Origin: an uncultured Gaiellales bacterium
GTDB taxonomy: Bacteria > Actinomycetota > Thermoleophilia > RBG-16-64-13
Assembly: GCA_964497095.1 (NCBI GenBank)
Contig: CAZCCL010000001.1
Span: forward strand, 348-64,347
Direction of reading: 5' to 3'
Length of the DNA: 64,000 nucleotides
The notes beneath the pieces are model-generated. The model did no database searches. It saw only the letters and a list, made by a program, of their open reading frames with translations, and was not told the DNA's origin. The stretch's first letter is position 1, and each line of letters begins with the position of its first letter. The position numbers were made by a program, and so were the translations under genes. Of this stretch, positions 9,701 through 41,259 are shown piece by piece.

Positions 9701-10478
9701 CGCCGAGTCCGACTCTCCGGCAGGCGCCCGCGTCGGGACGAACGGCTCGCCGGGGAACGGGTCTCGGGGCAATGGACGGCCGCCGGTGGAGATACCCCCC
9801 GATGACTTCAGCCGGGAAGAGCTTCTGGCATTGGAGAAGGAGACGTTGGGACTGTATGTGAGCTCGCACCCCCTGAAGGATCTCCGGCAGCACATCAAGA
9901 GAGAGGCAGGCCATTTGATCTCCCAACTAGGGGAACTGCCGGACGGCACGGTCACTACCATCGTGGGCATGGTGACGGCGGTGAAGCGGATCACCACGAA
10001 GAAATCGGGCGAGCTCATGGCCTTTGTCACCGTCGAGGGTATGGAAGGCTCCGTCGAGATCATCTGTTTCCCGGCGATCTACCAGGAGAACAAGGAGATC
10101 CTGATACAGGACAAGGTGGTGAAGATCAAGGGCCGGGTGGATCACAAGGACGAGGCCGAGACCAAGTTCATCCCCATGGCCATCGAAACGTTCTCGCCCC
10201 GGACGGGACTGGAGCCTCTGGCTCTTTCCGTCGATGGCGACAGCTTCCCCAGCACGGTCATAGAGGACCTCAAGCGTATCCTGGCCCGCTTCCCCGGGCA
10301 GTGTTCCGTCGACATGTACGTGCAGGTGGGGGCGGATGCGCGCCGCCTGCGTTTCGGGAACGGCTACCGGGTCGACCCCCAAGCCAGTCTTTTCGCGGAA
10401 CTGAAGGAATTGCTGGGGGAAAGCTGTGTGCTGCACGGGTCGGGATCGTCGACCCTCGGCAACGGTTCCGCGAGGTAG
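6759..10478 (+). CDS. dnaE: DNA polymerase III alpha subunit (PHP + polymerase + OB domains)
   Basis: FCHLHVHTHYSALDGA… PHP N-terminus with a long polymerase core. TTG start with AAGGAG RBS. The first about 55 aa are a low-complexity Ala/Gly/Pro extension, so the true start could be later. Confidence 0.9.
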   Translation: MSSVLPPVAGETIGGSPIPTAEETAGGAAAAPVDAAAGGSAAGTSPGPAGETDPARPAAGFCHLHVHTHYSALDGACKVEDLVARAAELGMPALAITDHGVLSGAIKFYEECLKAGVKPIIGLETYVVDDRLRKEGMNEERWHLTLLARDDTGYRNLLKLGSLAFLEGYYYKPRLDYQVLREHAEGLICLTGCASGRLSRALQNGQTAAAEAEVQRLVGIFGEGNVYLEMQETGIRELAEVNPRMGELAERTGLKLVATNDVHYLREGDADAHDVLLCIQTGSRLSEENRLRFNSQEFYFKSPEEMRAVFSDHPEAVSNTLEVADRCNVHIALDEMLIPRFPVPEGYDESSYLREQCERGLVRRYGDAVTSEIRERLESELEVVEKMGFPPYFLIVWDFVTFAKEAGIPVGPGRGSAAGSLVSYLLGITDLDPIAYDLLFERFLNPDRISMPDIDIDFSVNGRERVIEYVADKYGRDRVAQIATFGTIKARQAIRDAARVMDVPYGQADRIAKLVPEVLNITLDQCLRDPKCELRAAYDGDELVREVVDMARPLEGLIRQDSIHAAGVVISMGPLTDHLPLMQKGDAEVVTQVSMGDVERLGLLKMDFLGLRNLDVIDSAVGIIRDGGHPEFDIESIPLDDARTYQMLAKGDSEGVFQFESSGMREALREIQPTRLDDLIALVALYRPGPMEFIHDYARNKRDPESIRYEDERLQSILSPTYGVAIYQEQLMEISKRIGGFSPAEADDLRKAIGKKIRAKMDRLEPKFRAGAAASGTSPRVIDHLWSLMEKAGDYSFNKSHAACYALISYRTAYLKAKFPVQYMAALISSVMDTKDKVPFYVTVANEMGIEVLPPDINESVLDFRGVEGRIRFGLNAVKNVGETAIRVILDARRSGGPFLDLFDFCERVDLGVVNGRAIESLIKSGAMDSVGPSRRGMLLVMQQAMAHGKKVRADADRGQGSIFDLMPEPEAPAADSRGAAAESDSPAGARVGTNGSPGNGSRGNGRPPVEIPPDDFSREELLALEKETLGLYVSSHPLKDLRQHIKREAGHLISQLGELPDGTVTTIVGMVTAVKRITTKKSGELMAFVTVEGMEGSVEIICFPAIYQENKEILIQDKVVKIKGRVDHKDEAETKFIPMAIETFSPRTGLEPLALSVDGDSFPSTVIEDLKRILARFPGQCSVDMYVQVGADARRLRFGNGYRVDPQASLFAELKELLGESCVLHGSGSSTLGNGSAR

Positions 10479-10508
10479 CGGCAGGTAGCGCATCCGGGCC
10501 GCAGCCGA

Positions 10509-10547
10509 CCCTGCCGGCGAAAGGTCATTCTGAAACGAGTTCTAAGG
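10509..10547 (+). promoter_or_regulatory. Copy A of conserved 39-nt motif CCCTGCCGGCGAAAGGTCATTCTGAAACGAGTTCTAAGG, 29 nt upstream of the Mo-oxidoreductase ATG
   Basis: 36/39 identical to 33417..33455 upstream of selD. Same orientation and same distance to the RBS and start codon. Confidence 0.5.
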
Positions 10548-10576
10548 TGGGGCACCACAACCGGAAGGAGCGGGGC

Positions 10577-13219
10577 ATGAACGGGGGCGGGTGCGGCGGC
10601 AAGGACACTCCCGGTTCGGAAGCGCCCGGCGCAGAAGTGCGCGGTGAGAGGACGCTCATCCGGGACATCAGCTTCTGTGGCGTGGCCAACGGCGCGAACT
10701 CCTGCCTGGTGGATATCGCCGGCGGCAAGATCCTGCGTATCCGGCCCATGCACTACGACTGGAAGTACCGCCTCGACGAACTGGGTCAATGGGAGATGCA
10801 CGCCCGGGGCATGACTTTCAGGCCCACCACCAAGAGCCTGATCCCTCCGCTCAGCCTCGCGTACAAGAAACGGGTGCAATCTCCAGCCCGGATCAGGTTC
10901 CCGATGAAGCGGGTCGACTTCGATCCAGACGGGGAGCGGAACATCCAGAACCGGGGTGTGAGCAAATACGTACGCATCTCCTGGGACGAGGCTCTCGACA
11001 TCATCACCGGCGAGATGCTGCGCGTTCGGGAGAAGTACGGGCCTACCGCCATCCTGTATCAGGCCGACCAGCACGGCGAGAACAAGGTCGTTCACGGTCC
11101 CCACGGCTGCGGGAGGAAGCTCCTACGGTTGTTCGGGGGGTTCACGCTCCAGGCCCGGCAGCCGGACAGCTGGGAAGGCTGGTGCTGGGGGGCGAAGCAC
11201 GTATGGGGCATGGAGCCGGTCGGGCAGCAGGTGCCACAGAGCAACTTGGTCTATGACATCGCCAAAAACACGGAGTTGTTGCTCTTCTGGGGCTGCGACC
11301 AGGAGACGACCACCTGGGGTTGGATGGGGCAACTACCCAGCCGTCTCAGCTTCTGGTTCACGGAGTTGGGGATCAGACAGGTCTATATCGCGCCCGACCT
11401 CAACTACGCGGCGGCGGTGCATGCCGACCGCTGGATCCCCATACTCCCCAACACCGATGCCGCTCTCTACCTGGCCATCGCCTATCAGTGGTTCGAGGAG
11501 GGCACCTACGACAAGGAGTACCTCGAGACCCACGCCTGCGGCGTCGAAGCATTCGAGGCATATGTGATGGGAGTGCAGGACGGGGTTCCCAAGAGCCCGG
11601 CGTGGGCGGCCCCGATTACCGGTGTGCCGTCGCGCATCATCAAAGCGCTGGCTCGGGAGTGGGCGTCCAAGCGAACGACGATCGCCATCGGGAACGGGGG
11701 ACCGATGATCCGCGGCCCCTACTCGAGCGAGCCGGCCCGCCTGCAGGTGCTCTGCCTGGCCATGCAGGGATTGGGCGGACCTGGGGCCAATCAGGCCAAG
11801 ATGGAGGATTGGGGCTTCATGGACGATCTGGCCCAGGTCGGGTGCCCCGAACCCGTCATGATTCCCAGCCTGTTCGCCGCCTACACCGGGGGCACCGGCG
11901 GCGAGACCAACCATGCCTTCGTGCCGAAGACCCTGGTCCCCAAAGCCATCATGGAGGGGAGCTGCGAGTGGTGGGGCAACGAGCACGAGATGGCCCCCCG
12001 GGAGAACCAGTTCGTCCACTACCGTTATCCGGCCGAGGGATGTTCCCGGATCCACATGGTCTGGACCGACTCCCCCTGTTTCATGACCTGCTGGAACGAC
12101 GGCAACAGCTTCGTGCGGGCCATGCGCCACCCCGATATCGAGTTCGTCTTCGCCCAGCATCCCTGGTGGGAAAACGATTGCCTCCTGGCCGACGTGATCC
12201 TGCCGGTCAGCACCAAGCTGGAGGAAGACGACATCAACGCCGACCTCTACAGCGGCCAGTCCATCCTGGTCTTCCCGGAGGAGCGATGCGTGGAACCGGT
12301 CGGGGAGTCCTTCAGCGACTACGAGATCGTCTGCAAGATTGCGGAGAGGCTGGGACTGCTCGAGGCATACACCGGGGGCAGGTCCGTCGACGACCTGAGG
12401 CGCCTGGGTTTCGAGACCTCCGGGGTCCGGGACCTGGCGGCCGGTGGGCCTGCAACGTGGGAGGAGTTCGTGGAGCAAGGCTATGTCACGCTTCCCACCA
12501 ACCCGGAGTGGGAGAAGGTGCCCGCCGGTCTCATCGACTTCTATCGCGACCCCGAGAGCCATCCGCTCAGCACTCCCACCGGCAAGATCGAGTTCTACGC
12601 TACCGGTCTGGCCGAGCACTTCCCCGACGACGAGGAGAGGCCGCCGGTACCCCGGTGGATCCCAGCCGGTCCCACCCACCAGGAGACGCTGGGGACAGAG
12701 CGGGCCAAGAGGTTTCCCCTGCTGGTGGTGTCGAACCACCCTCGTTGGGGCATACACGCCCAGCACGAAGACATCACGTGGCTCCGCGAGATCGAGACCT
12801 GCAAGGTCGGCGGCCCAGACGGCTACAAATACCAGCCTCTGTGGGTCCATCCCAGGGATGCAGCCACCCGGGGCATCGAGCACGGTGATGTGGTCATCAT
12901 CCACAACGAGCGCGGGGCGGTCTTGGCCGGCGCGTACGTGACCGAACGCATCATTCCTGGGGCGGTAAGCATGGACCACGGGGCCAAGTTCGACCCGATC
13001 GTCCCTGATGCTCTCGACCGGGGAGGCAACATCAACGCAATCGTACCCGGCCACACCACCTCCAAGAACGCGGTGGGCATGGCGGTGAGCGGTTTCCTGG
13101 CTGAGGTGGAGAAGGCCGACCTGGCGGGTCTCAGGGCCAAGTACGCCGAGGCATTTGCCCGGCCGTTCCACGCAGACGCCGGTCCGGGCGTGGAGGCATG
13201 GCTTGAAGCCGACACGTAG
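10577..13219 (+). CDS. Molybdopterin-dependent oxidoreductase, DMSO-reductase superfamily (catalytic subunit without N-terminal Fe-S motif; BisC/TorA/pyrogallol-transhydroxylase-like)
   Basis: 880-aa protein with molybdopterin-oxidoreductase-like organisation (…IAIGNGGPMIRG…, MDHGAKFDP…). GGAAGGAG RBS then ATG at 10577. No Tat motif, no CxxCxxxC. Confidence 0.65.
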   Translation: MNGGGCGGKDTPGSEAPGAEVRGERTLIRDISFCGVANGANSCLVDIAGGKILRIRPMHYDWKYRLDELGQWEMHARGMTFRPTTKSLIPPLSLAYKKRVQSPARIRFPMKRVDFDPDGERNIQNRGVSKYVRISWDEALDIITGEMLRVREKYGPTAILYQADQHGENKVVHGPHGCGRKLLRLFGGFTLQARQPDSWEGWCWGAKHVWGMEPVGQQVPQSNLVYDIAKNTELLLFWGCDQETTTWGWMGQLPSRLSFWFTELGIRQVYIAPDLNYAAAVHADRWIPILPNTDAALYLAIAYQWFEEGTYDKEYLETHACGVEAFEAYVMGVQDGVPKSPAWAAPITGVPSRIIKALAREWASKRTTIAIGNGGPMIRGPYSSEPARLQVLCLAMQGLGGPGANQAKMEDWGFMDDLAQVGCPEPVMIPSLFAAYTGGTGGETNHAFVPKTLVPKAIMEGSCEWWGNEHEMAPRENQFVHYRYPAEGCSRIHMVWTDSPCFMTCWNDGNSFVRAMRHPDIEFVFAQHPWWENDCLLADVILPVSTKLEEDDINADLYSGQSILVFPEERCVEPVGESFSDYEIVCKIAERLGLLEAYTGGRSVDDLRRLGFETSGVRDLAAGGPATWEEFVEQGYVTLPTNPEWEKVPAGLIDFYRDPESHPLSTPTGKIEFYATGLAEHFPDDEERPPVPRWIPAGPTHQETLGTERAKRFPLLVVSNHPRWGIHAQHEDITWLREIETCKVGGPDGYKYQPLWVHPRDAATRGIEHGDVVIIHNERGAVLAGAYVTERIIPGAVSMDHGAKFDPIVPDALDRGGNINAIVPGHTTSKNAVGMAVSGFLAEVEKADLAGLRAKYAEAFARPFHADAGPGVEAWLEADT

Positions 13220-27745: not shown

Positions 27746-28951
27746 ATGGAGCGATATCTACTAAGGGACGACATATGGTGGGCGGGTGCCATCGATTGGG
27801 ACGTCCGTGATTTCCACGGCTACGAGACCCCGCGGGGGACCACATACAACGCTTACCTGATCCTGGATGAGAAGGTGGCCCTGGTCGATGGCTGCCGGGA
27901 GGGCTTCGGCCCGGAGGTGTTGGCCCGGATCCGCGGCTGCTGTGGCATGCGCCCGGTAGACTACCTGGTCGTCAACCACGTGGAGCCCGATCATTCGGGG
28001 GCGATCCCCTGGCTGGTGGAGCGACTGAGACCTGAGCGGATCTTCTGCTCGAAGCGGGCGAGGGACGTGCTGGGCCTTTACTACGGGGCGGAGACGGTGG
28101 ACGGCTGGAATATCCAGACGGTCGCCACCGGGGACGAGGTCTCCCTCGGGCGCAACACGTTGCAGTTCATCGAAGCGCCCATGCTGCATTGGCCGGACAG
28201 TATGTTCACCTACGTCAGAGAGGCCAAGACCCTCCTGCCCAACGACGGTTTCGGCCAGCACCTGGCCACGTCCAAGCGTTTCGCCGACGAAGTCGACATG
28301 AGCTTGGTCATGGAGGAGGCCAGCAAGTACTACGCCAACATCCTCATGCCGTTCGGGGGACAGATCCAGAAGATGCTGGCCAAGATAGGCGAGCTGGGCC
28401 TGGAGATCGAGACGATCGGCCCCAGCCACGGGGTGATATGGCGCCGGCCCGAGGACGTGTCCCGCATCGTGGAGTCGTACGCTGCGTGGAGCGACTTCCA
28501 GGCGCCGGAGCGGGTGTCGCTGATCTACGACACCATGTGGCACGCCACCGAGCAGATGACCATGGCCATCGCGGACGGCGTGGCTCAGCAGGGAGTGGAC
28601 TGCGTGGTCGCCAGACTCAGCAGCAACCCCCGGTCCGAGATGGCACGCCTGGTTCTCGAGTCCAGGGCCTTCCTGGTGGGGTCGCCCACCCTGAACAACA
28701 ATATGTTCCCGACCGTCGGGGAATTCCTCACCTACATCAAGGGTCTCCGGCCGCGTAGGCGTGTGTCCGGCGCCTACGGCTCCTGCGGGTGGGCAGGAGG
28801 GGCGGTGAAGCAGCTCGACGCGGAGCTCACGGCCCTGGGTCTCGACATGGTGGAGCCCATCGAAGTCAAGTACAGGCCGAGCAAGGCCGAGTTGGAGACG
28901 TGCGTGGAACTGGGCCGGCAGGTGGCCCGCAAAGTCAGGACCACCGGATAG
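27746..28951 (+). CDS. Flavodiiron protein (FprA/rubredoxin:oxygen oxidoreductase type; metallo-beta-lactamase plus flavodoxin domains)
   Basis: …LVNHVEPDHSGAIPWL… di-iron site region. C-terminal flavodoxin-like domain (…FLVGSPTLNNNMFPTV…). 401 aa. Confidence 0.85.
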   Translation: MERYLLRDDIWWAGAIDWDVRDFHGYETPRGTTYNAYLILDEKVALVDGCREGFGPEVLARIRGCCGMRPVDYLVVNHVEPDHSGAIPWLVERLRPERIFCSKRARDVLGLYYGAETVDGWNIQTVATGDEVSLGRNTLQFIEAPMLHWPDSMFTYVREAKTLLPNDGFGQHLATSKRFADEVDMSLVMEEASKYYANILMPFGGQIQKMLAKIGELGLEIETIGPSHGVIWRRPEDVSRIVESYAAWSDFQAPERVSLIYDTMWHATEQMTMAIADGVAQQGVDCVVARLSSNPRSEMARLVLESRAFLVGSPTLNNNMFPTVGEFLTYIKGLRPRRRVSGAYGSCGWAGGAVKQLDAELTALGLDMVEPIEVKYRPSKAELETCVELGRQVARKVRTTG

Positions 28952-28966: not shown

Positions 28967-29566
28967 GTGAGCGTTACCGTGCTCGGCTTGGCAGGCAGCG
29001 CCCGCCGCGGGGGGAACACCGAGACCCTCCTCGACTGGTGTCTGGCGGCAGCTGCAGGGGAGGGTGCCGAGGTGGTCAAGTTCCGGCTCTGCGACCTCGA
29101 ACTTCACGGCTGCCGGGCCTGCGAGTCCTGCTCGCGTGACGGCGTGTGCGTGGTCAAGGACGACATGCAGTCGCTCTATCCGCACCTTAGAAGGGCCGAC
29201 TCTATCGTGCTGGCCGCCCCGGTCTACTCCATGGGCATACCGGCGGTACCCAAGATGGTCATCGACCGCTGCCAGCCCTTCTGGGCGCTCAAGTACGTGC
29301 TCAAGCAGGCCGTCGCCGAGCCGGGTGGCCGGCAGAGGTTGGGGGCGTTCCTCAGTTGTGCCGGGACCTCGTTCAGCTATGTCTTCGACGGCTGCCGGCT
29401 GGTGATGCGCACCTTCTGGCACATGCTGGAGGTGTCGCCGGCCGGAGACCTGCTCTGCCCGGGAGTGGATGCCAAGGGAGACATACTCGAGCATCCCGAG
29501 GCCCGGGAGGTGGCCGAGGATATCGGTCGGCGTCTGGGGCGCGGGCGGGGTCCGCGCACGGGTTGA
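28967..29566 (+). CDS. Iron-sulfur flavoprotein (Isf-like NADPH-dependent FMN reductase fold with compact Cys motif)
   Basis: MSVTVLGLAGSARRGGNTETLL… flavodoxin-like start. CRACESCSRDGVC compact 4-Cys motif typical of Isf. Confidence 0.7.
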   Translation: MSVTVLGLAGSARRGGNTETLLDWCLAAAAGEGAEVVKFRLCDLELHGCRACESCSRDGVCVVKDDMQSLYPHLRRADSIVLAAPVYSMGIPAVPKMVIDRCQPFWALKYVLKQAVAEPGGRQRLGAFLSCAGTSFSYVFDGCRLVMRTFWHMLEVSPAGDLLCPGVDAKGDILEHPEAREVAEDIGRRLGRGRGPRTG

Positions 29567-29821: not shown

Positions 29822-30025
29822 ATGGAGAAACGCTTGCAGCGGTCCCGGACCGAGAAGATGCTCGGCGGGGTTTGCGGAGGTCTGGCGGCTTATTTCGGCG
29901 TGGATCCCACCTTGGTGCGGGTCCTCTGGATCGCCATGACGCTGATCGTCGGGGTGGGGATCCTGCTTTACCTCATCCTGTGGGTGGTGATGCCCCTAGA
30001 GGCTCCCGCGCAGCCCTTGGACTGA
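29822..30025 (+). CDS. PspC-domain membrane protein
   Basis: …[52 protein letters not shown] matches the PspC domain consensus. Confidence 0.65.
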
Positions 30026-30817
30026 CGGCCGGGGCGGGACGAAGCCGTAGGGCAGCTCCAGATCGTAGGCCGCGAGTAGAGGTTCGTTCAGCAGTATCTC
30101 CTCGATCGGCCCGTCCGCTACGACCCGGCCCTCCGCCAGGATAAGCGCGCGCTCGCACAGTTCGTAGGCGACCGGTAGGTCGTGAGTCACGACGATCTTC
30201 GTGACCGGCAGATCCTGCAGGATGTCGATGAGCTGCCGCCGGGACTTGGGGTCCAAGTTGGAGGAGGGTTCATCCAATACGAGGACCTCCGGACGCATGG
30301 CAAGCACGGTCGCCGTGGCCACCCGCTTCTTCTGACCGAAAGAAAGATGATGAGCGGGCCGGTCTTCGTAGCCCTGCATACCCACGGCGGCGAGTGCTTC
30401 TCTGACTCGCAGGAGGATCTCGTCTTTCTCCAGACCCATGTTGACCGGGCCGAACGCCACATCCTGAGCCACGCTGGTGAGGAACAGTTGATCCTCGGGG
30501 TCCTGGAAGACCACCCCTACCCTGCGCCTTATCTCACGCAGATTCTTGTCCTCGACGTTCAGGCCGAACACGCGGAGACTTCCCGTCCCCCGCAGGATGC
30601 CGTTGAGATGAAGGAGAAGGGTGGTCTTGCCGGCTCCGTTCGGACCGATGATGGCCACCGACTCCCCCTGTTGTACGTTGAAACCGACCCCGCGCAACAC
30701 TTCGGTACCGTCCGGATAGGCGAAATGGAGGTCTTCGGCCTCCACAGCCGGCGGCTTTCCTCCGACCAAGGACAGCTCGGTCAAAGGGTGCGGCCTCGGG
30801 CTCCTCCCGTCTTTCAC
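29996..30817 (-). CDS. cbiO: ECF transporter ATPase (CbiO/EcfA)
   Basis: GPNGAGKTT Walker [17 protein letters not shown] signature, [11 protein letters not shown] Walker B. GTG start overlaps the cbiQ stop (GTGA). Confidence 0.85.
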
Positions 30818-31590
30818 AGTGACGACACCGCGCGGACGGAGACAACGAGTAGCAAGAGGCCGCCGAGGAACACGGCGTCGGTGGTCCGAAAGCGGCCCCC
30901 CTCGACCAGTCTCACCGTGCCGTCGTAGCCCCGGCTGAGCATGGCCACGTACACGCGCTCCCCGCGGCTGTAGCTGCGGAGAAACAGCGCGCTCAACATG
31001 TAGCCGAGGGTGGGAGCGTTCCAGAGCCACCGGGCTCGGTAGTTGCGGGCGGTCATGGCTCGGCGCATGCGCCGCAGTTCGTCGGCGAACACAAAACTGT
31101 ACCGGTACATGAAGCTGACTATGAGCACGAAGACCTTGGGTGTCTTCAGGCGCTCGAAACCGGACACCATCTCGGCGAAGGATGTGGTCGAGCTCAGGAT
31201 GATCATGCTGATCACGCCCAGAATGGCTTTCGCTCCCACGTTCCAGAGGACGAGCAGGCCTTCACCCGTGACCCGCATGCCCCCCAGGCTGTAGCCGCCG
31301 CCCCCCGCTTGGTGGAAGAAGGGGAGGAAGATGGCTACCACTAGGATGAAGGGCAACACCACCAGGGCGCGTCGGAGCACGTGCTTGAGGGGGAGGCGCG
31401 AGACCCCGATCAGGAAGAACAGGATGCCGGCGTAGAGCGCGTAGGGCCACATGGGTAGAGCCGGCGTGGTGACCACCACCACCGTGAAGCCGATGAATCC
31501 GAGGATCTTTGCCCGGGGATCGAGACGGTGCAGCGGGCTTTGCTCCGCGCGGATCTCGGTCAGGAAGGAGTCGGCCTCGATCAGCGCCAT
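30814..31590 (-). CDS. cbiQ: ECF transporter transmembrane T component (CbiQ/EcfT)
   Basis: 258-aa polytopic protein with CbiQ-like features (…LDPRAKIL…LSRGYDG…). ATG at 31590. Confidence 0.8.
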   Translation of the reverse strand: MALIEADSFLTEIRAEQSPLHRLDPRAKILGFIGFTVVVVTTPALPMWPYALYAGILFFLIGVSRLPLKHVLRRALVVLPFILVVAIFLPFFHQAGGGGYSLGGMRVTGEGLLVLWNVGAKAILGVISMIILSSTTSFAEMVSGFERLKTPKVFVLIVSFMYRYSFVFADELRRMRRAMTARNYRARWLWNAPTLGYMLSALFLRSYSRGERVYVAMLSRGYDGTVRLVEGGRFRTTDAVFLGGLLLLVVSVRAVSSL

Positions 31591-31622: not shown

Positions 31623-32693
31623 CTAGGATCGGCCGGAGGGCCCAGAAGGCGGCAAGTCGCGGATCTCGTCGTTCCTCCTCGCAGGCTGGGTGGCTGGGGT
31701 CATGCGCCGGCCTCTTCCACCAAGCGCACGGCCGGCCAGGACCACGAGCCCGAAGAGTACGACCGTGCCCGCCAGACCGGCGATGGCCGTAGCCACCCTC
31801 TCGTTGCCGACTCCGGGCAGCTGGTAGTCGCCGAGTGGAGAAAGACCCCACGTAGGTTCCTCAGCAGCCGCCTGTTCGAATCCCCTGTCCGCTGCGACCT
31901 TCTCCAGGCCATCGGGAGAGCCGGAGGCGAAGGGCGAGACGAACACCGCCAGGGCGACGGCGACGACCAGCGCACCGGCGACGAACGACCAGAAGCGCGC
32001 CCTTCCACTCATGCGCATGCCTGGTCGTCCGGCGGCGCGGCGCACCGTCTCACGAGGTAGGTCGAACGTCTTGACCAGATCGGGGCGGGTGGCCAGGACC
32101 GCAGCCACCACAGCCGTGGTGATCAGGGCCTCGCCGACGGCTATGACCATGTGTACGGAGACCATCGCGGGTAGAGCGATACGGAGCGGCGTGGTCCCGG
32201 AGACGGCCAGTTCGGCCGAAGCCACGGCCGAAGCTGCGACCACCGATATCCAGGAAGCCACGGCTACCGAGACCAAGTAACCGGACAGAGTGCGAGGAAG
32301 GAGCCTCTTCAGTCCAACGAAGACTGCATACCCGACGAAGACCGCGACCACGCCCATGTTGAACACGTTGGCTCCCAAGGCGGTGATGCCCCCGTCGGCC
32401 ATACCCAAGGCCTGGACCACGAGGACGACGGTCATCACAATCGGGGCCGACCACACTCCCAGAAGTGCGACGGCGAACATCGCCCCCAGAAAGTGCCCGC
32501 TTGTGCCGCCGGCGACGGGGAAGTTGAGCATCTGAGCGGCGAAGATGAAGGCCGCACCGACCCCGAGCAGCGGCACGGTCCTCTCGCCCAAGTCGTTCTT
32601 GGTCTTGTGGACCGCGTACGCCACCGTCCCAAGCGATACCGCTCCGGTCGCGACTGCAGTGGGGATGTTTACGAACCCGTCAGGGATGTGCAT
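31623..32693 (-). CDS. cbiM: CbiM/NikM substrate-capture component fused to PDGLE (CbiN-like) domain
   Basis: MHIPDGF… N-terminus diagnostic of CbiM/NikM. C-terminal roughly 130 aa contains the PDGLE motif plus two TM helices. AGGAG RBS. Confidence 0.8.
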   Translation of the reverse strand: MHIPDGFVNIPTAVATGAVSLGTVAYAVHKTKNDLGERTVPLLGVGAAFIFAAQMLNFPVAGGTSGHFLGAMFAVALLGVWSAPIVMTVVLVVQALGMADGGITALGANVFNMGVVAVFVGYAVFVGLKRLLPRTLSGYLVSVAVASWISVVAASAVASAELAVSGTTPLRIALPAMVSVHMVIAVGEALITTAVVAAVLATRPDLVKTFDLPRETVRRAAGRPGMRMSGRARFWSFVAGALVVAVALAVFVSPFASGSPDGLEKVAADRGFEQAAAEEPTWGLSPLGDYQLPGVGNERVATAIAGLAGTVVLFGLVVLAGRALGGRGRRMTPATQPARRNDEIRDLPPSGPSGRS

Positions 32694-32708
32694 CGCTCTC
32701 CTCTGCTC

Positions 32709-33161
32709 CTAGTCTTCCCGGCAGGCGCTGCAGAGGCCGAAGACTGTGACTTCGCGGGTCGCAAAACCCTGGTCTTCAAGCAAGGTGGTACCCAGGCCTC
32801 CCAGATCCTCGTCGTGCACGTGGGTCACCCGACCGCACGTTTCGCAGACCAGGTGGTGATGGGGGACCTCTTCTTCCACCTCGAAGAAGCGCCGAGTGGG
32901 ACCGAGGTGGGTCTCCCGGACCAGATGAAGGTCGACCAGCAACTCCAGAGTGCGGTACACGGTGGACATGTTGATGTTCGGAAACCGGTCCTGCACCCGG
33001 GCACAGACCTCTTCGGCGCTCATATGCGAGCCGTGCTCGCGGAGCACATCCCATACCAAAGTGCGCTGGGGGGTCAGTCTGTACCCCATCTCGTGGAGCG
33101 TGCGGGTGGCATGATGGGTCACGGTTCTTGCAAGCTTATTGCAATAGCCTTTTGTTGTCAA
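32709..33161 (-). CDS. nur: Fur-family metalloregulator, probably nickel-responsive Nur
   Basis: Fur-family DNA-binding helix (…YRLTPQRTLVWDVL…) and metal-site HHH/Cys residues (…HHHLVCETCGRVTHVHDE…). Directly precedes cbiMNQO. Own promoter carries a Nur box. The start is ambiguous: TTG at 33161 or GTG at 33122. Confidence 0.7.
   Translation of the reverse strand: MTTKGYCNKLARTVTHHATRTLHEMGYRLTPQRTLVWDVLREHGSHMSAEEVCARVQDRFPNINMSTVYRTLELLVDLHLVRETHLGPTRRFFEVEEEVPHHHLVCETCGRVTHVHDEDLGGLGTTLLEDQGFATREVTVFGLCSACRED
33128..33144 (-). promoter_or_regulatory. Nur-box-type operator TTGCAA-N5-TTGCAA overlapping the nur promoter -10
   Basis: Perfect TTGCAA-gctta-TTGCAA read from the sequence, matching the published Nur box (tTGCaa-N5-ttGCAA). 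Located in the nur leader. Confidence 0.55.
33133..33161 (-). promoter_or_regulatory. Putative nur promoter TTGACA-17 nt-TAAGCT (valid only if nur starts at GTG 33122)
   Basis: Perfect -35 hexamer with 17-nt spacer read on the minus strand. Under the TTG-start model the -35 is instead codons 1-2. Confidence 0.3.
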
Positions 33162-33280
33162 CAGCAGTCAGGATGCGGGGGACCTTCGCCCCCTTGGCCC
33201 CCAGCGCCTCGGTCTGCTAGTGTCTCGGGTGCTCGCGTATGTGCGGTCCAGGACGCCTACGCAGGCCTCTGAAGGAGCGG

Positions 33281-33314
33281 CGCCTGAGAACTCGTTTCAG
33301 AGTGGCATCTCGGC
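33281..33314 (-). promoter_or_regulatory. Copy C (inverted, partial) of the conserved motif; core CTCTGAAACGAGTTCTCAGG on the minus strand
   Basis: Reverse complement of 33281..33304 matches the cores of copies A and B (14-nt identical run CTGAAACGAGTTCT). Confidence 0.4.
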
Positions 33315-33416
33315 CACCGAGGCCGCGCTTGGCGGCCGGACGCTTCGTTCTTTCGTCGCGTCCGTGTCTCCAGAACGCCTGCTTCCTGCGTCCTTGCCGC
33401 GGGCATGCCAATCTCA

Positions 33417-33455
33417 CCCTGCTGGCGAAAGGTCATTCTGAAACGAGCTCTGAGG
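33417..33455 (+). promoter_or_regulatory. Copy B of conserved 39-nt motif CCCTGCTGGCGAAAGGTCATTCTGAAACGAGCTCTGAGG, 33 nt upstream of the selD ATG
   Basis: See copy A. Followed by AAGGAGG RBS. Confidence 0.5.
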
Positions 33456-33488
33456 GCTATCGAACGGGAAGAAAGGAGGTGATGGTCG

Positions 33489-34556
33489 ATGGAGGCGATC
33501 CCGAGGCTGACCACGCTCTCGCACGGTTCGGGCTGAGCGTGCAAATTGGGCCCCAAGGACTTGGGGCAGGTGATGGAGATGCTGCCACGCGTGGGTGATC
33601 CCGCTCTGCTCGTGGGCGCGGATACGTTGGACGATGCGGCCGTCTACCGCGTGACGGGTGAGATCGCCCTGGTGCAGACGATCGATTTCTTCACGCCGGT
33701 GGTCGACGACCCCTACGATTTCGGTCGTATCGCCGCCGCCAACGCTTTCTCCGACGTCTACGCCATGGGCGGCCGGCCCCTGACCGCGCTCAATATTGTG
33801 TGCTTCCCTTCGGGGGTCCTGCCGTTGGAAACCCTGGGGAGGATCCTGCAGGGCGGGGCGGAGACGGCTCGGCTCGCCGGGGCTACCATCGTTGGTGGGC
33901 ACACCATCGACGACCCCGAACCCAAGTATGGGCTGGCCGTCACCGGCGTGCTGGAGCCGGGCCATGAGCTGACAAACGCCGGCGCCAGGCCAGGCGACGC
34001 CCTCATCCTCACGAAGCCGTTGGGTACCGGGGTGATCTCGACCGCCATCAAGCAGGGGACCGCCTCTGCCGAGGCCATCGCGGCCGCCACCGCCTCCATG
34101 GCGACTCTCAATCGGGGCGGGGCCGAGGTAGCTCGTGCTTGCGGTGCCCATGCGCTCACGGACATCACCGGCTTCGGCCTCCTGGGCCACCTCAGCGAGT
34201 TGTGCCGGGCGAGCGGGGTGCTCGCCGAGGTGTGGTACGACCGGTTGCCCCTGCTGGTCCAAGCAGAAGCACTGGCCCAGACCGGGGTCGTCCCGGGCGG
34301 CACGAGACGCAACCTGGAGTATGTGCAGCCCTGGACGGCGTTCGACCCCGAGTTGGAGCCTTGGCAGCACCTCCTGTGCGCCGATGCGCAGACGTCCGGC
34401 GGTCTCATTCTTGTGGTCTCGCCTGAGAAGGTGCCGGAAGCACTCGAGGCGCTGACGGCCGGAGATACCCCGGCTGCGGTGGTCATCGGCCGGGTCATCA
34501 CCAGGGAGGAAGCAAAGGGGTCCCTACTCACAGTCGGATTCGCCGGAACCGGGTGA
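33489..34556 (+). CDS. selD: Selenophosphate synthetase (selenide, water dikinase), selenocysteine-containing form; UGA-Sec at 33534-33536
   Basis: With ATG at 33489 the N-terminus reads MEAIPRLTTLSHGSG-U-ACKLGPK…, matching the SelD consensus SHGAG(C/U)GCK with TGA at the Cys17 position. The rest is a full AIR-synthase-like SelD body. The ORF caller started at 33546. Confidence 0.9.
33550..33567 (+). other. SECIS-like hairpin GCCCCAA-GGAC-TTGGGGC, 13 nt downstream of the selD UGA
   Basis: 7-bp perfect stem with GGAC loop read from the sequence. Confidence 0.6.
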
Positions 34557-39726: not shown

Positions 39727-39813
39727 AAGGCAGGACCGGGTAGCGGGGGGTCCGGCGGGGGGCTTGTGCTACCATACTTTGCGCGCGATGAATCGAGTAT
39801 CTGCGAGGTTAGC

Positions 39814-41259
39814 GTGCACATCACCTTCATCGAACCCGCCGCTCCCGGCTTCCACGTATACAGCTTTGTGAAGCAGCTGCGACTGGGTCTGCCGCTCCTG
39901 GGTGCCATGATGGCCCAGCGCGGGCATCAGGTGCGCGTATATGCGGAGAGTCTCTCCGAGATCGATTGGGACGACGTGCTCTCCTCCGACCTGGTGGGCA
40001 TCTCCTCCACTACCTCCACAGCCGTGCGCGCCTATCGCTACGCGCGCCGGGTACGGGATGCGGGCGTGCCCGTGGTCATGGGCGGACCCCATGTGACCTT
40101 CTTGGCCGACGAGGCCATGGACTTCTGCGACTACGTGGTCCGTAACGAAGGGGAGGAGACCCTTGTAGAGTTGGTCGACTACCTTCACGGCCGCGGTTCG
40201 CTGGAAACGATTTTGGGTCTCACCTACCGTGACGGCCAGGGCCAGGTCGTGCACAACCCGTCGCGTCCTCTTCTCACTTCGCTCACCGACCTCCCCTGGC
40301 CGGACATGAGTCTGGTGGTCGGTGGCGAGCAGGTGAAGCCCACGCCGATCCTGGCGTCACGGGGTTGCCCGTTCGGATGCGAATTCTGCTCGGTGGTCCT
40401 CATGTTCGGCCGCCGGGTGCGTACCGTCGAGCCGGTCGAGGTCGTGAAGCAGATAAAGAGGATAAAACCGAAGAAGCTCTTCTTTTACGACGACAACTTC
40501 TTCATCAGCAAGCGGCGGGGCAAAGAGCTGCTGACAGAGATGATCCGGCAAAAAGCGCAAGTGGAGTTCTTCGCCCAGATCAGGGCCGATTCCGTCTGCA
40601 AAGACGGGAAGGTCGACCGGGAGCTGCTGGACCTGCTGTGGAACGCGGGCTGCACCATCGTCTACTTGGGGCTGGAGTCCGTCAACCCGGCTACCCTCAA
40701 GGAGTACCACAAGGAATCGAGCATAGACGATATGGCCGGAGGGCTGGAGGCCCTGGCGCAGAGAGGCATCAAGACCCACGGCATGTTCGTGTTCGGCGCC
40801 GACTCCGACACCCCGGAATCGCTGCAGAAGACCGCAGATTTCGCCACTCAGCACGGACTGAACAGCATACAGTTCCTGGCTCTGACTCCCCTGCCCGGTA
40901 CCAGGCAGACGGCCCAGTTCGAAGCCGAGGGGCGTATCTTCACCAAGAATTGGAGTCTCTACGATGGGCACCACGTGGTGTTCTGGCCCAAGCAGATGAC
41001 CCCCTTCGAGCTGCAAGAGATAATCCTTCAGGCTCACAAGCGCTTCTACAAAGGGCGCCGGGTGTTTGCGGTCAGACACAGAGCCCCCATGTTCCACAAG
41101 CACCAGCTTCAGGGATACCTGCTCAGCCGGGCCTGGGAGCACGTGCGCGAGAACCGCGAGTTCTTGCGCGAACTGAAGGACTTCTCCGAGTCGCACACGC
41201 CACCCGTAGCGGTGGGTCGGGGTTTCCTCAAATCTGGGTTGGAGACGGTCACGCGATAG
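39814..41259 (+). CDS. B12-binding-domain radical SAM protein (class B rSAM)
   Basis: N-terminal cobalamin-binding-like domain, then CPFGCEFCS radical-SAM cluster motif (CxxxCxxC variant). About 480 aa. Confidence 0.7.
   Translation: MHITFIEPAAPGFHVYSFVKQLRLGLPLLGAMMAQRGHQVRVYAESLSEIDWDDVLSSDLVGISSTTSTAVRAYRYARRVRDAGVPVVMGGPHVTFLADEAMDFCDYVVRNEGEETLVELVDYLHGRGSLETILGLTYRDGQGQVVHNPSRPLLTSLTDLPWPDMSLVVGGEQVKPTPILASRGCPFGCEFCSVVLMFGRRVRTVEPVEVVKQIKRIKPKKLFFYDDNFFISKRRGKELLTEMIRQKAQVEFFAQIRADSVCKDGKVDRELLDLLWNAGCTIVYLGLESVNPATLKEYHKESSIDDMAGGLEALAQRGIKTHGMFVFGADSDTPESLQKTADFATQHGLNSIQFLALTPLPGTRQTAQFEAEGRIFTKNWSLYDGHHVVFWPKQMTPFELQEIILQAHKRFYKGRRVFAVRHRAPMFHKHQLQGYLLSRAWEHVRENREFLRELKDFSESHTPPVAVGRGFLKSGLETVTR

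Follow-up and report, generated by a model that had tools for sequence, protein, structure and literature searches.

Which metal is sensed by a Fur-family regulator whose gene opens an operon for a nickel/cobalt importer, and does a Nur-type operator in front of that operon make the protein a Nur, the nickel uptake regulator of Streptomyces? The question is raised by a locus of an uncultured Gaiellales bacterium, lying within a stretch of 64,000 nucleotides (GenBank assembly GCA_964497095.1, contig CAZCCL010000001.1, positions 348 to 64,347 of the forward strand), which is referred to as the window. Its minus strand carries, in this order, the genes of the regulator, nik(MN), nikQ, and nikO, the last three encoding an energy-coupling factor (ECF) importer. 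An original prediction had read the locus as a nickel-responsive Nur followed by a nickel-specific NikMNQO transporter. In our analysis, the four genes probably constitute an autoregulated nickel-uptake operon that would be switched at a palindrome in its own promoter, and the regulator appears to belong to a Fur subfamily distinct from Nur.

The operon and its control region

The operon and its control elements have the following positions in the window.

33156..33161, minus strand: -35 hexamer TTGACA of the predicted promoter, whose first three bases are the TTG taken as a start codon by the open reading frame (ORF) caller

33133..33138, minus strand: -10 hexamer TAAGCT (TAnnnT), composed of the five spacer bases of the palindrome and the first T of its promoter-proximal (downstream) half-site

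33128..33144, no strand assigned: putative 6-5-6 palindromic operator, TTGCAA-GCTTA-TTGCAA on the plus strand and TTGCAA-TAAGC-TTGCAA on the coding strand

32709..33122, minus strand: Fur-family regulator, 137 residues from the predicted GTG start (PF01475, E = 2.8e-29)

32694..32708, minus strand: junction of 15 nt with a GGAG ribosome-binding site for nikMN

31623..32693, minus strand: nik(MN), 356 residues, an S component (CbiM/NikM, residues 2-206; PF01891, 2.2e-56) fused to a NikN-like PDGLE domain (residues 236-324; PF13190, 8.2e-17)

30814..31590, minus strand: nikQ, ECF T component, starting at ATG 31590 (PF02361; TIGR02454, 143.7 against a cutoff of 111.8)

29996..30817, minus strand: nikO, ECF ATPase, starting at GTG 30817 (PF00005; TIGR01166, 225 against a cutoff of 211.8)

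These Pfam and NCBIfam matches uphold the earlier reading of the locus as a Fur-family gene followed by a complete ECF importer on one strand. The regulator reaches 102 bits (cutoff 23) and the PDGLE domain 61 bits (cutoff 27). This domain is called NikN-like only from its position in the fusion and from weak CbiN matches. Of the overlapping junctions described earlier, one is present between nikQ and nikO, with the nikQ stop and the nikO start sharing GTGA, but the gap before the cbiM-type gene is 15 nt and not 14 nt, and nikMN and nikQ are separated by 32 nt.

The minus-strand control region reads ...ctgctgTTGACAacaaaaggctaTTGCAATAAGCTTGCAAgaaccGTGacccatcat... and contains the palindrome TTGCAAGCTTATTGCAA at 33128-33144. 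The palindrome overlaps a TTGACA-17-TAAGCT promoter with 17 nt between the -35 and -10 hexamers, and its end is 5 nt from GTG 33122; both elements are located where the original prediction had placed them, in the leader of the regulator gene. Its identification as a Nur box is borne out by the published consensus tTGCaa-N5-ttGCAA, which was derived from footprints on sodF, sodF2, nikA, and nikM (PMC2691836). The 64-kb window (65% G+C) has a single exact copy of the palindrome, and no copy is found in 100 dinucleotide-preserving shuffles of the window; when the tolerance is raised to three mismatches, one further, poor match appears in the window. A generic promoter/terminator scan called no promoter at the nik site, and no promoter-like site or terminator within the four genes. 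The scanner missed the nik promoter because TAAGCT agrees with TATAAT at three of six positions. As this -10 hexamer is below the scanner's TATAAT threshold, we relied on phylogenetic footprinting instead.

Start and N-terminus of the regulator

GTG 33122 shares its reading frame with TTG 33161, the start chosen by the ORF caller. Among 120 homologues from a large protein collection, 107 start with M[T/S]HHA, and in ten others the reading frame opens further upstream and runs through the operator, giving for instance YCNKLA; these ten entries are evidently mis-called. Orthologues have an ATG at the codon equivalent to GTG 33122, and in several related loci a stop codon is found inside the box region, directly before this ATG. 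The homologue N-termini and the in-box stop codons together argue for a start at GTG 33122 and a protein of 137 residues rather than for a start at TTG 33161, in agreement with the preference expressed in the original prediction. The same evidence argues against a transcription start site (TSS) upstream of 33161, which would render the box intragenic. No Shine-Dalgarno sequence precedes the GTG, and the mRNA is predicted to be near-leaderless with a 5' untranslated region of approximately 3-5 nt. Public gene calls (P0021, P0043, P0057, P0081, P0082, P0112, and others) are often extended upstream, with the operator translated as ..YCNKLA.. or ..YCNRLA... The database entries for this regulator family, most of which are named 'ferric uptake regulator', probably have both the start codon and the name wrong.

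The N-terminus of the regulator is invariant, reading M-T-H-H or M-S-H-H; it reads M-H-H-A-R in a sister clade, and an Anaerolineae relative with M-H-H-H is also followed by cbiM. A scan with one genome per species gave 79 loci having relatives of the regulator. The loci with more than 50% identity belong to Thermoleophilia, Gaiellales, and other Actinomycetota metagenome-assembled genomes (MAGs), and the weaker ones mostly to Chloroflexota. The loci whose regulator has an X-His-His (X-H-H) N-terminus form a set of 41, namely 40 Actinomycetota loci (49-83% identical by tblastn) and the Anaerolineae locus L073 (42%). A cbiM/nikM homologue is located directly downstream of the regulator in all 41.

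Nickel or cobalt as the substrate

We then inspected the transporter. Its S component matches TtNikM2 (4M58, MHIPEG...) with 108 bits (4e-30), compared with 38 bits (1e-8) for the cobalt CbiM of R. capsulatus (5X3X, MHIMEG...). The N-terminus MHIPDGF, corresponding to the Met1-His2 loop, and His67 align with TtNikM2, in which Ni(II) is bound by four nitrogens from Met1, His2, and His67 (PMC3945884). All linked orthologous S components begin with MH[IL]PDG and not with MHIMEG. The operon also resembles the group-I NikMNQO or Nik(MN)QO systems in the fused N component, NikMN fusions being known elsewhere, and in the dedicated Q and O genes within one operon. Different from these systems, the first cistron here is a Fur-family gene and there is no riboswitch. 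NikMNQO operons are reportedly controlled by NikR in most cases and cobalt versions by B12 riboswitches, as Rodionov is said to have described in 2006.

The best-surviving alternative is that the same architecture serves cobalt, with a CbiMNQO-type importer under a cobalt-sensing Fur paralogue, which we consider unlikely. Pfam and NCBIfam name all four transporter parts Cbi*, yet the NCBIfam CbiM and CbiN scores are all under their cutoffs, and the S component is far nearer to NikM2 than to proven CbiM. A gene for a B12-binding radical SAM protein is present in the window (39766-41259), but Pfam revealed no B12-biosynthesis gene among about 40 window ORFs. Rfam returned no family, and thus no cobalamin riboswitch, for the whole window at gathering thresholds, and no match for 33100-33600 at E ≤ 1. 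With a leader of at most 5 nt, the operon also differs from a B12-riboswitch-controlled CbiMNQO operon. TtNikM2 binds Co in crystals, the Ni- and Co-binding residues being common to both, and members of the NiCoT/NicO group can prefer Co, whereas the operator found here equals that of the nickel-specific Nur (PMC2691836). Nickel is the better-supported substrate of the two. The nickel-type importer of the original prediction is upheld; strict specificity for nickel is a possibility only, as TtNikM2 binds cobalt too.

The regulator belongs to a Fur subfamily distinct from Nur

The regulator was compared with Nur of S. coelicolor (ScoNur; SCO4180; 3EYY), which binds the nikM promoter in a nickel-dependent manner and represses nikMNOQ and nikABCDE (PMC2691836). 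The two proteins share the Fur fold (TM score 0.81-0.83, root mean square deviation 2.3 Å, 37% identity) and the operator consensus. The recognition helix STVYRTLELL, Tyr56, and Arg57 are identical, and the numbering is colinear from residue 33 to residue 111. Three residues of the Nur M-site, His33, His88, and His90, are invariant in the regulator family and are common to Fur and PerR proteins too, whereas His86 of the M-site is replaced by Val; a ScoNur H86A mutant retained DNA binding (PMC2691836). An et al. (2009) reported that the Ni-site residues His70, His72, and His126 are conserved in Nur orthologues only, and held that this site underlies nickel selectivity and 6-5-6 recognition (PMC2691836), while a later review suspects that it may be a crystallisation artefact (PMC7055735). 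In the regulator family, Glu is invariant at position 70, either His, Arg, Gln, Leu, Tyr, or Cys occurs at position 72, and Glu or Gln at the equivalent of position 126; no histidine is found in the segment of the 126-equivalent anywhere in the family. ScoNur begins with MVSTDW, in contrast to the M(T/S)HH of the regulator. The regulator is further set apart by being encoded within the nik operon, where it would be autoregulated, and no sodF-type target was seen here. The ScoNur gene is not known to share an operon with nik genes.

Membership of the regulator in the Fur family is borne out. His88-His89-His90, Cys93/Cys96, and Cys131/Cys134 are invariant in the family and correspond to the Fur HHxH..CxxC motif and a C-terminal CxxC. 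An AlphaFold2 (AF2) model with a predicted local distance difference test score of 85 has the standard Fur fold, and Foldseek matched it to Fur, Nur, and PerR structures at E values of about 1e-11, which confirms the Fur fold and nothing further. The canonical Fur regulatory site is composed of His33, Glu81, His88, His90, and His101, i.e. four His and one Glu. Within the A2 set, whose 68 sequences take in more distant relatives, His33, His88, and His90 are invariant and Glu81 and His101 are present in at least 90%; inside the window's own clade, all five residues are invariant.

Family placement by score alone was rejected, as the scores against the family profile (109 bits for Bacillus-type Fur, 100 for ScoNur, and 90 for BsPerR) are not discriminating; the respective pairwise identities to the regulator are 36, 37, and 30%. 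A profile search, run exhaustively over 1.84 billion representatives, yielded 21,320 relatives, and the best of them were combined with four PDB references in a neighbor-joining tree (148 taxa, 200 bootstraps). In this tree, the window family is a separate clade with 92% support, which the MHHAR sister clade joins at 52%. ScoNur clusters with 12 representatives, the majority bearing the His triad (core of 11 taxa, 80%). The clades are resolved, but the backbone support is at most 1%, so that a deep sister relationship of the window family and Nur is possible. The regulator lies in neither the Zur nor the PerR clade. Taken with the Ni-site positions, which read Glu, variable, and Glu or Gln, the tree does not support the original naming of the protein as Nur. 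We infer a distinct Fur subfamily that works like Streptomyces Nur and stands outside the Nur clade, and the description 'Nur-like operator, distinct Fur subfamily' should take the place of 'Nur'. The functional reading in the original prediction, a nickel-responsive Fur paralogue, is largely right, the nickel response itself being predicted.

A second alternative is that the regulator senses Fe, Zn, Mn, or peroxide in the manner of Fur, Mur, Zur, or PerR, and controls nickel import secondarily; we judge this quite improbable. The best match of the regulator in the PDB is Bacillus cereus Fur and BsPerR is also close, yet the tree sets the regulator apart from BsPerR, Bacillus Fur, and CjFur, and its scores are far under all cutoffs of the NCBIfam Fur, PerR, Zur, and Irr equivalogs. 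At canonical site 2, the ligands are those seen in Fur proteins generally, and the metal specificity of Fur proteins is hard to predict (PMC11672702). Fur of M. genitalium (MG236) offers a parallel: it represses an ECF-type transporter and controls the cellular nickel content, and its palindrome overlaps the promoter. Its effector may be zinc, however, and unlike the operon described here, its transporter is not a group-I NikMNQO system and its lineage is unrelated. Against a different signal stand the place of the regulator gene at the head of a nickel-importer operon in all 41 loci, the linkage of its relatives to three different Ni/Co transporter families, and an operator of the 6-5-6 Nur type instead of the n-1-n box of Fur, Per, or Zur (PMC2691836).

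Conservation of the operator and promoter

A box matrix of 41 sites was built from the window and 40 of the 41 X-H-H loci. The locus left out is L073, whose half-sites are just 4 nt apart. The mismatches to the box range from zero to four (5, 22, 9, 4, and 1 loci, respectively), and T2, G3, C4, A6, T12, G14, and C15 of the box are invariant. The MTHH/MSHH clade comprises 35 loci, i.e. the window and 34 others. All of them have TAnnnT at box positions 7-12. TTGACA with at most one mismatch is found upstream of this -10 in 34, at a distance of 17 nt (29 loci), 18 nt (four), or 19 nt (one), and the box ends 4-6 nt ahead of the start codon in 29 of the 35. Upstream of the -35, the loci of this clade have no sequence relationship. 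The control region reads as a clean phylogenetic footprint, and the promoter is kept across the orthologous loci.

Elsewhere, the register of the palindrome changes. In the MHHAR sister clade it is shifted so that its left half coincides with the -35, and a separate TAGCGT is located 6 nt before the ATG; in L086 the box is over the -35 rather than the -10. As the palindrome keeps its sequence while changing register with the promoter, we interpret it as a putative operator and not just as part of the promoter. Within some 800 kb of related loci, the box with at most one mismatch occurs ahead of the regulator only, with one exception in L058. This second exact box of L058 was rejected as a chance match, being inside a TnpB-like ORF. 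It is hardly credible that the palindrome is nothing but promoter sequence, such as conserved surroundings of a -10 or a discriminator, or an inverted repeat that arose by chance. In favour of this reading, the -10 hexamer is inside the palindrome, the box is known from sequence alone, and the generic scanner made no call. Against it, both half-sites are conserved symmetrically around a spacer that is variable save for TA...T, the box is preserved in other clades at a different position with respect to the -10, its sequence equals an operator consensus derived from footprinting experiments (PMC2691836), and none of the shuffles contains it.

The X-His-His N-terminus and other Fur lineages

The invariant N-terminus may be part of the sensor. 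As a rule, methionine aminopeptidase cleaves off the initial Met when Thr or Ser follows but not when His does. By this rule, the mature chain of the regulator would always begin with X-His-His, namely with T/S-H-H here and with M-H-H in the MHHAR clade. Such a chain would fit the pattern of amino-terminal Cu(II)- and Ni(II)-binding (ATCUN) or N-terminal-amine sites, in which a free α-amine is accompanied by His as the second or third residue. RcnR, NmtR, and HypA (PMC7055735) and NikM (PMC3945884) bind nickel through a free α-amine adjacent to His, with the amine and His3 in RcnR and NmtR, the N-terminus MHE in HypA, and Met1 and His2 in NikM. RcnR, NmtR, and HypA differ from the regulator in being derepressors of the CsoR/RcnR or ArsR family or chaperones, while the regulator would be a co-repressed Fur-family protein, for which N-terminal metal binding is predicted. 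Residues 1-4 are unstructured in the AF2 model, which is compatible with a metal-ordered tail and is not evidence for one.

Five unrelated Fur representatives with an X-H-H N-terminus were looked up for neighbours and upstream sites.

P0161, MHHGPH: precedes NicO; exact TTGCAAAAGGTTTGCAA upstream, the right half of which is the -35 placed 17 nt before TATAAT

P0133, MSHHEE: precedes a permease resembling NicO, with an HX4DH motif and a Pfam score of 21 bits, which is under the cutoff; TTGACA-11-GTGCAATATAGTTGCAC upstream

P0209, MSHHPL: precedes SBP_bac_5 and two permeases (NikABC-like); no clear box

P0245, MSHHFE: precedes CbiM-PDGLE, CbiQ, and an ABC gene; half-sites 4 nt apart

P0141, MHHYGN: no transporter neighbour and no box

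Among the genome loci, all 41 X-H-H regulators and nine of the 38 others are linked to a transporter. The X-H-H N-terminus thus appears enriched at transporter-linked loci without being exclusive to them, and much of this signal comes from one clade. As a strict marker of transporter linkage it was rejected, because of the nine non-X-H-H relatives near cbiM or NicO and the unlinked P0141 (MHHY). Fur relatives without X-His-His adjoin NicO-family genes (L038:4229-4843 and L060:36-863) or are near cbiM (L040, L056, and L078), so that the association of this part of Fur sequence space with Ni/Co transporters extends beyond the window's clade. In cbiM-linked Fur relatives outside the main clade (L068 and L070 of Chloroflexota, L073 of Anaerolineae, and L088), TTGCAA-like half-sites are spaced by four bases and not five, as exemplified by TTGCAATAATTCGCAA and CTGCAAAGAATTGCAA; they may represent a 6-4-6 variant of the operator.

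These lineages allow a wider proposal, which we put forward tentatively and with more doubt than confidence. Within the Fur family there may be a nickel-sensing branch, so far unrecognised and including the regulator of the window, that reads the 6-5-6 box without the Ni-site triad and senses Ni(II) by its mature X-His-His (ATCUN/RcnR-like) end together with the four-His canonical site. Relatives of the regulator would have been recruited as first cistrons for no fewer than three nickel-importer families, namely NikMNQO, NicO, and NikABC-like importers.

A model for feedback control of nickel uptake

For the operon itself, we propose the following mechanism. With enough Ni(II) in the cell, the regulator dimer, loaded with metal, would bind the TTGCAA-N5-TTGCAA palindrome and cover the -10 and the transcription start of the near-leaderless mRNA, so that RNA polymerase would be excluded. 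The synthesis of the regulator and that of the ECF importer would be shut off together, which would give nickel uptake a direct negative feedback. As nickel becomes scarce, the operator would be vacated by the apo-protein and the operon would be expressed. The sensing ligands are likely to be His33, Glu81, His88, His90, and His101, possibly with the N-terminal amine, His3, and His4.

Several points weigh against this model. The triad that is specific to Nur is missing from the regulator, and the X-H-H protein P0141 has neither a transporter neighbour nor a box. As regards the metal, the TtNikM2 site also takes Co(II) in crystals (PMC3945884), CbiMNQO systems carry some nickel, and the NicO family contains Co transporters as well as exporters; Pfam revealed no nickel-enzyme gene among about 40 window ORFs. 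The 10 nt between the -10 and the start codon are long for a strictly leaderless mRNA. Finally, the TSS, the DNA binding, and the metal response are all predicted from the sequence of a MAG.

Neighbouring features in the window

Downstream of the operon, a PspC-domain ORF (29822-30025, plus strand) is convergent with nikO and shares some 30 nt with the 3' end of that gene; PspC is found 3' of the operon in related MAGs as well. Beyond it are genes for a flavodiiron protein (27746-28951) and an FMN reductase (28967-29566), which are syntenic in related MAGs. A NuoD-like gene near the orthologous operon in L080 was considered as a nickel enzyme and rejected, being devoid of the [NiFe] CxxC motifs.

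On the other side, selD (selenophosphate synthetase; 33489-34556, plus strand) is divergent from the regulator gene, here and in about 30 related loci. It has an in-frame TGA at 33534-33536 (..LSHGSG-U-ACKLGPKDL..). The selD product probably contains selenocysteine, and 19 N-terminal codons would be lost by ORF callers that start at 33546. ARAGORN found no tRNA and no tRNA-Sec in the window next to selD. Between selD and the regulator promoter is an inverted repeat (33283-33455) with arms of 30 nt, 80% complementary, around 113 nt, and a 40-nt copy of the arm is located at 10508-10547, 3' of dnaE. The repeat was rejected as a leader RNA or nik control element, as its fold z-scores are weak, it has no Rfam match, and it is not in any related locus; the selD-regulator spacers of related loci measure just 105-290 nt. 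The repeat is probably a palindromic element specific to this genome, resembling repetitive extragenic palindromes or miniature inverted-repeat transposable elements. Elsewhere in the window, the Pfam match of a large molybdopterin oxidoreductase ORF (10301-13219, plus strand) begins at residue 139, for which reason its real start is probably near 10715.

Implications for nickel sensing in the Fur family

Nickel-dependent repression of nik genes by the Fur-family Nur at TTGCAA-N5-TTGCAA is already known in Streptomyces, and the logic proposed here is ordinary for metal homeostasis. What is new is that the same operator would be used by a protein without the Ni-site of Nur. The finding has two practical uses: the start codon and product name can be corrected for hundreds of 'ferric uptake regulator' database entries, and the position matrix can be applied in searches for nickel regulons in uncultured Thermoleophilia and Chloroflexota. 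For the biology of the family, the regulators described here would be a natural test of, and a counter-example to, the structural explanation of Nur specificity given by An et al. (2009), and the N-terminal X-His-His would offer a simple alternative ligand set, a candidate for a new nickel-sensing motif.

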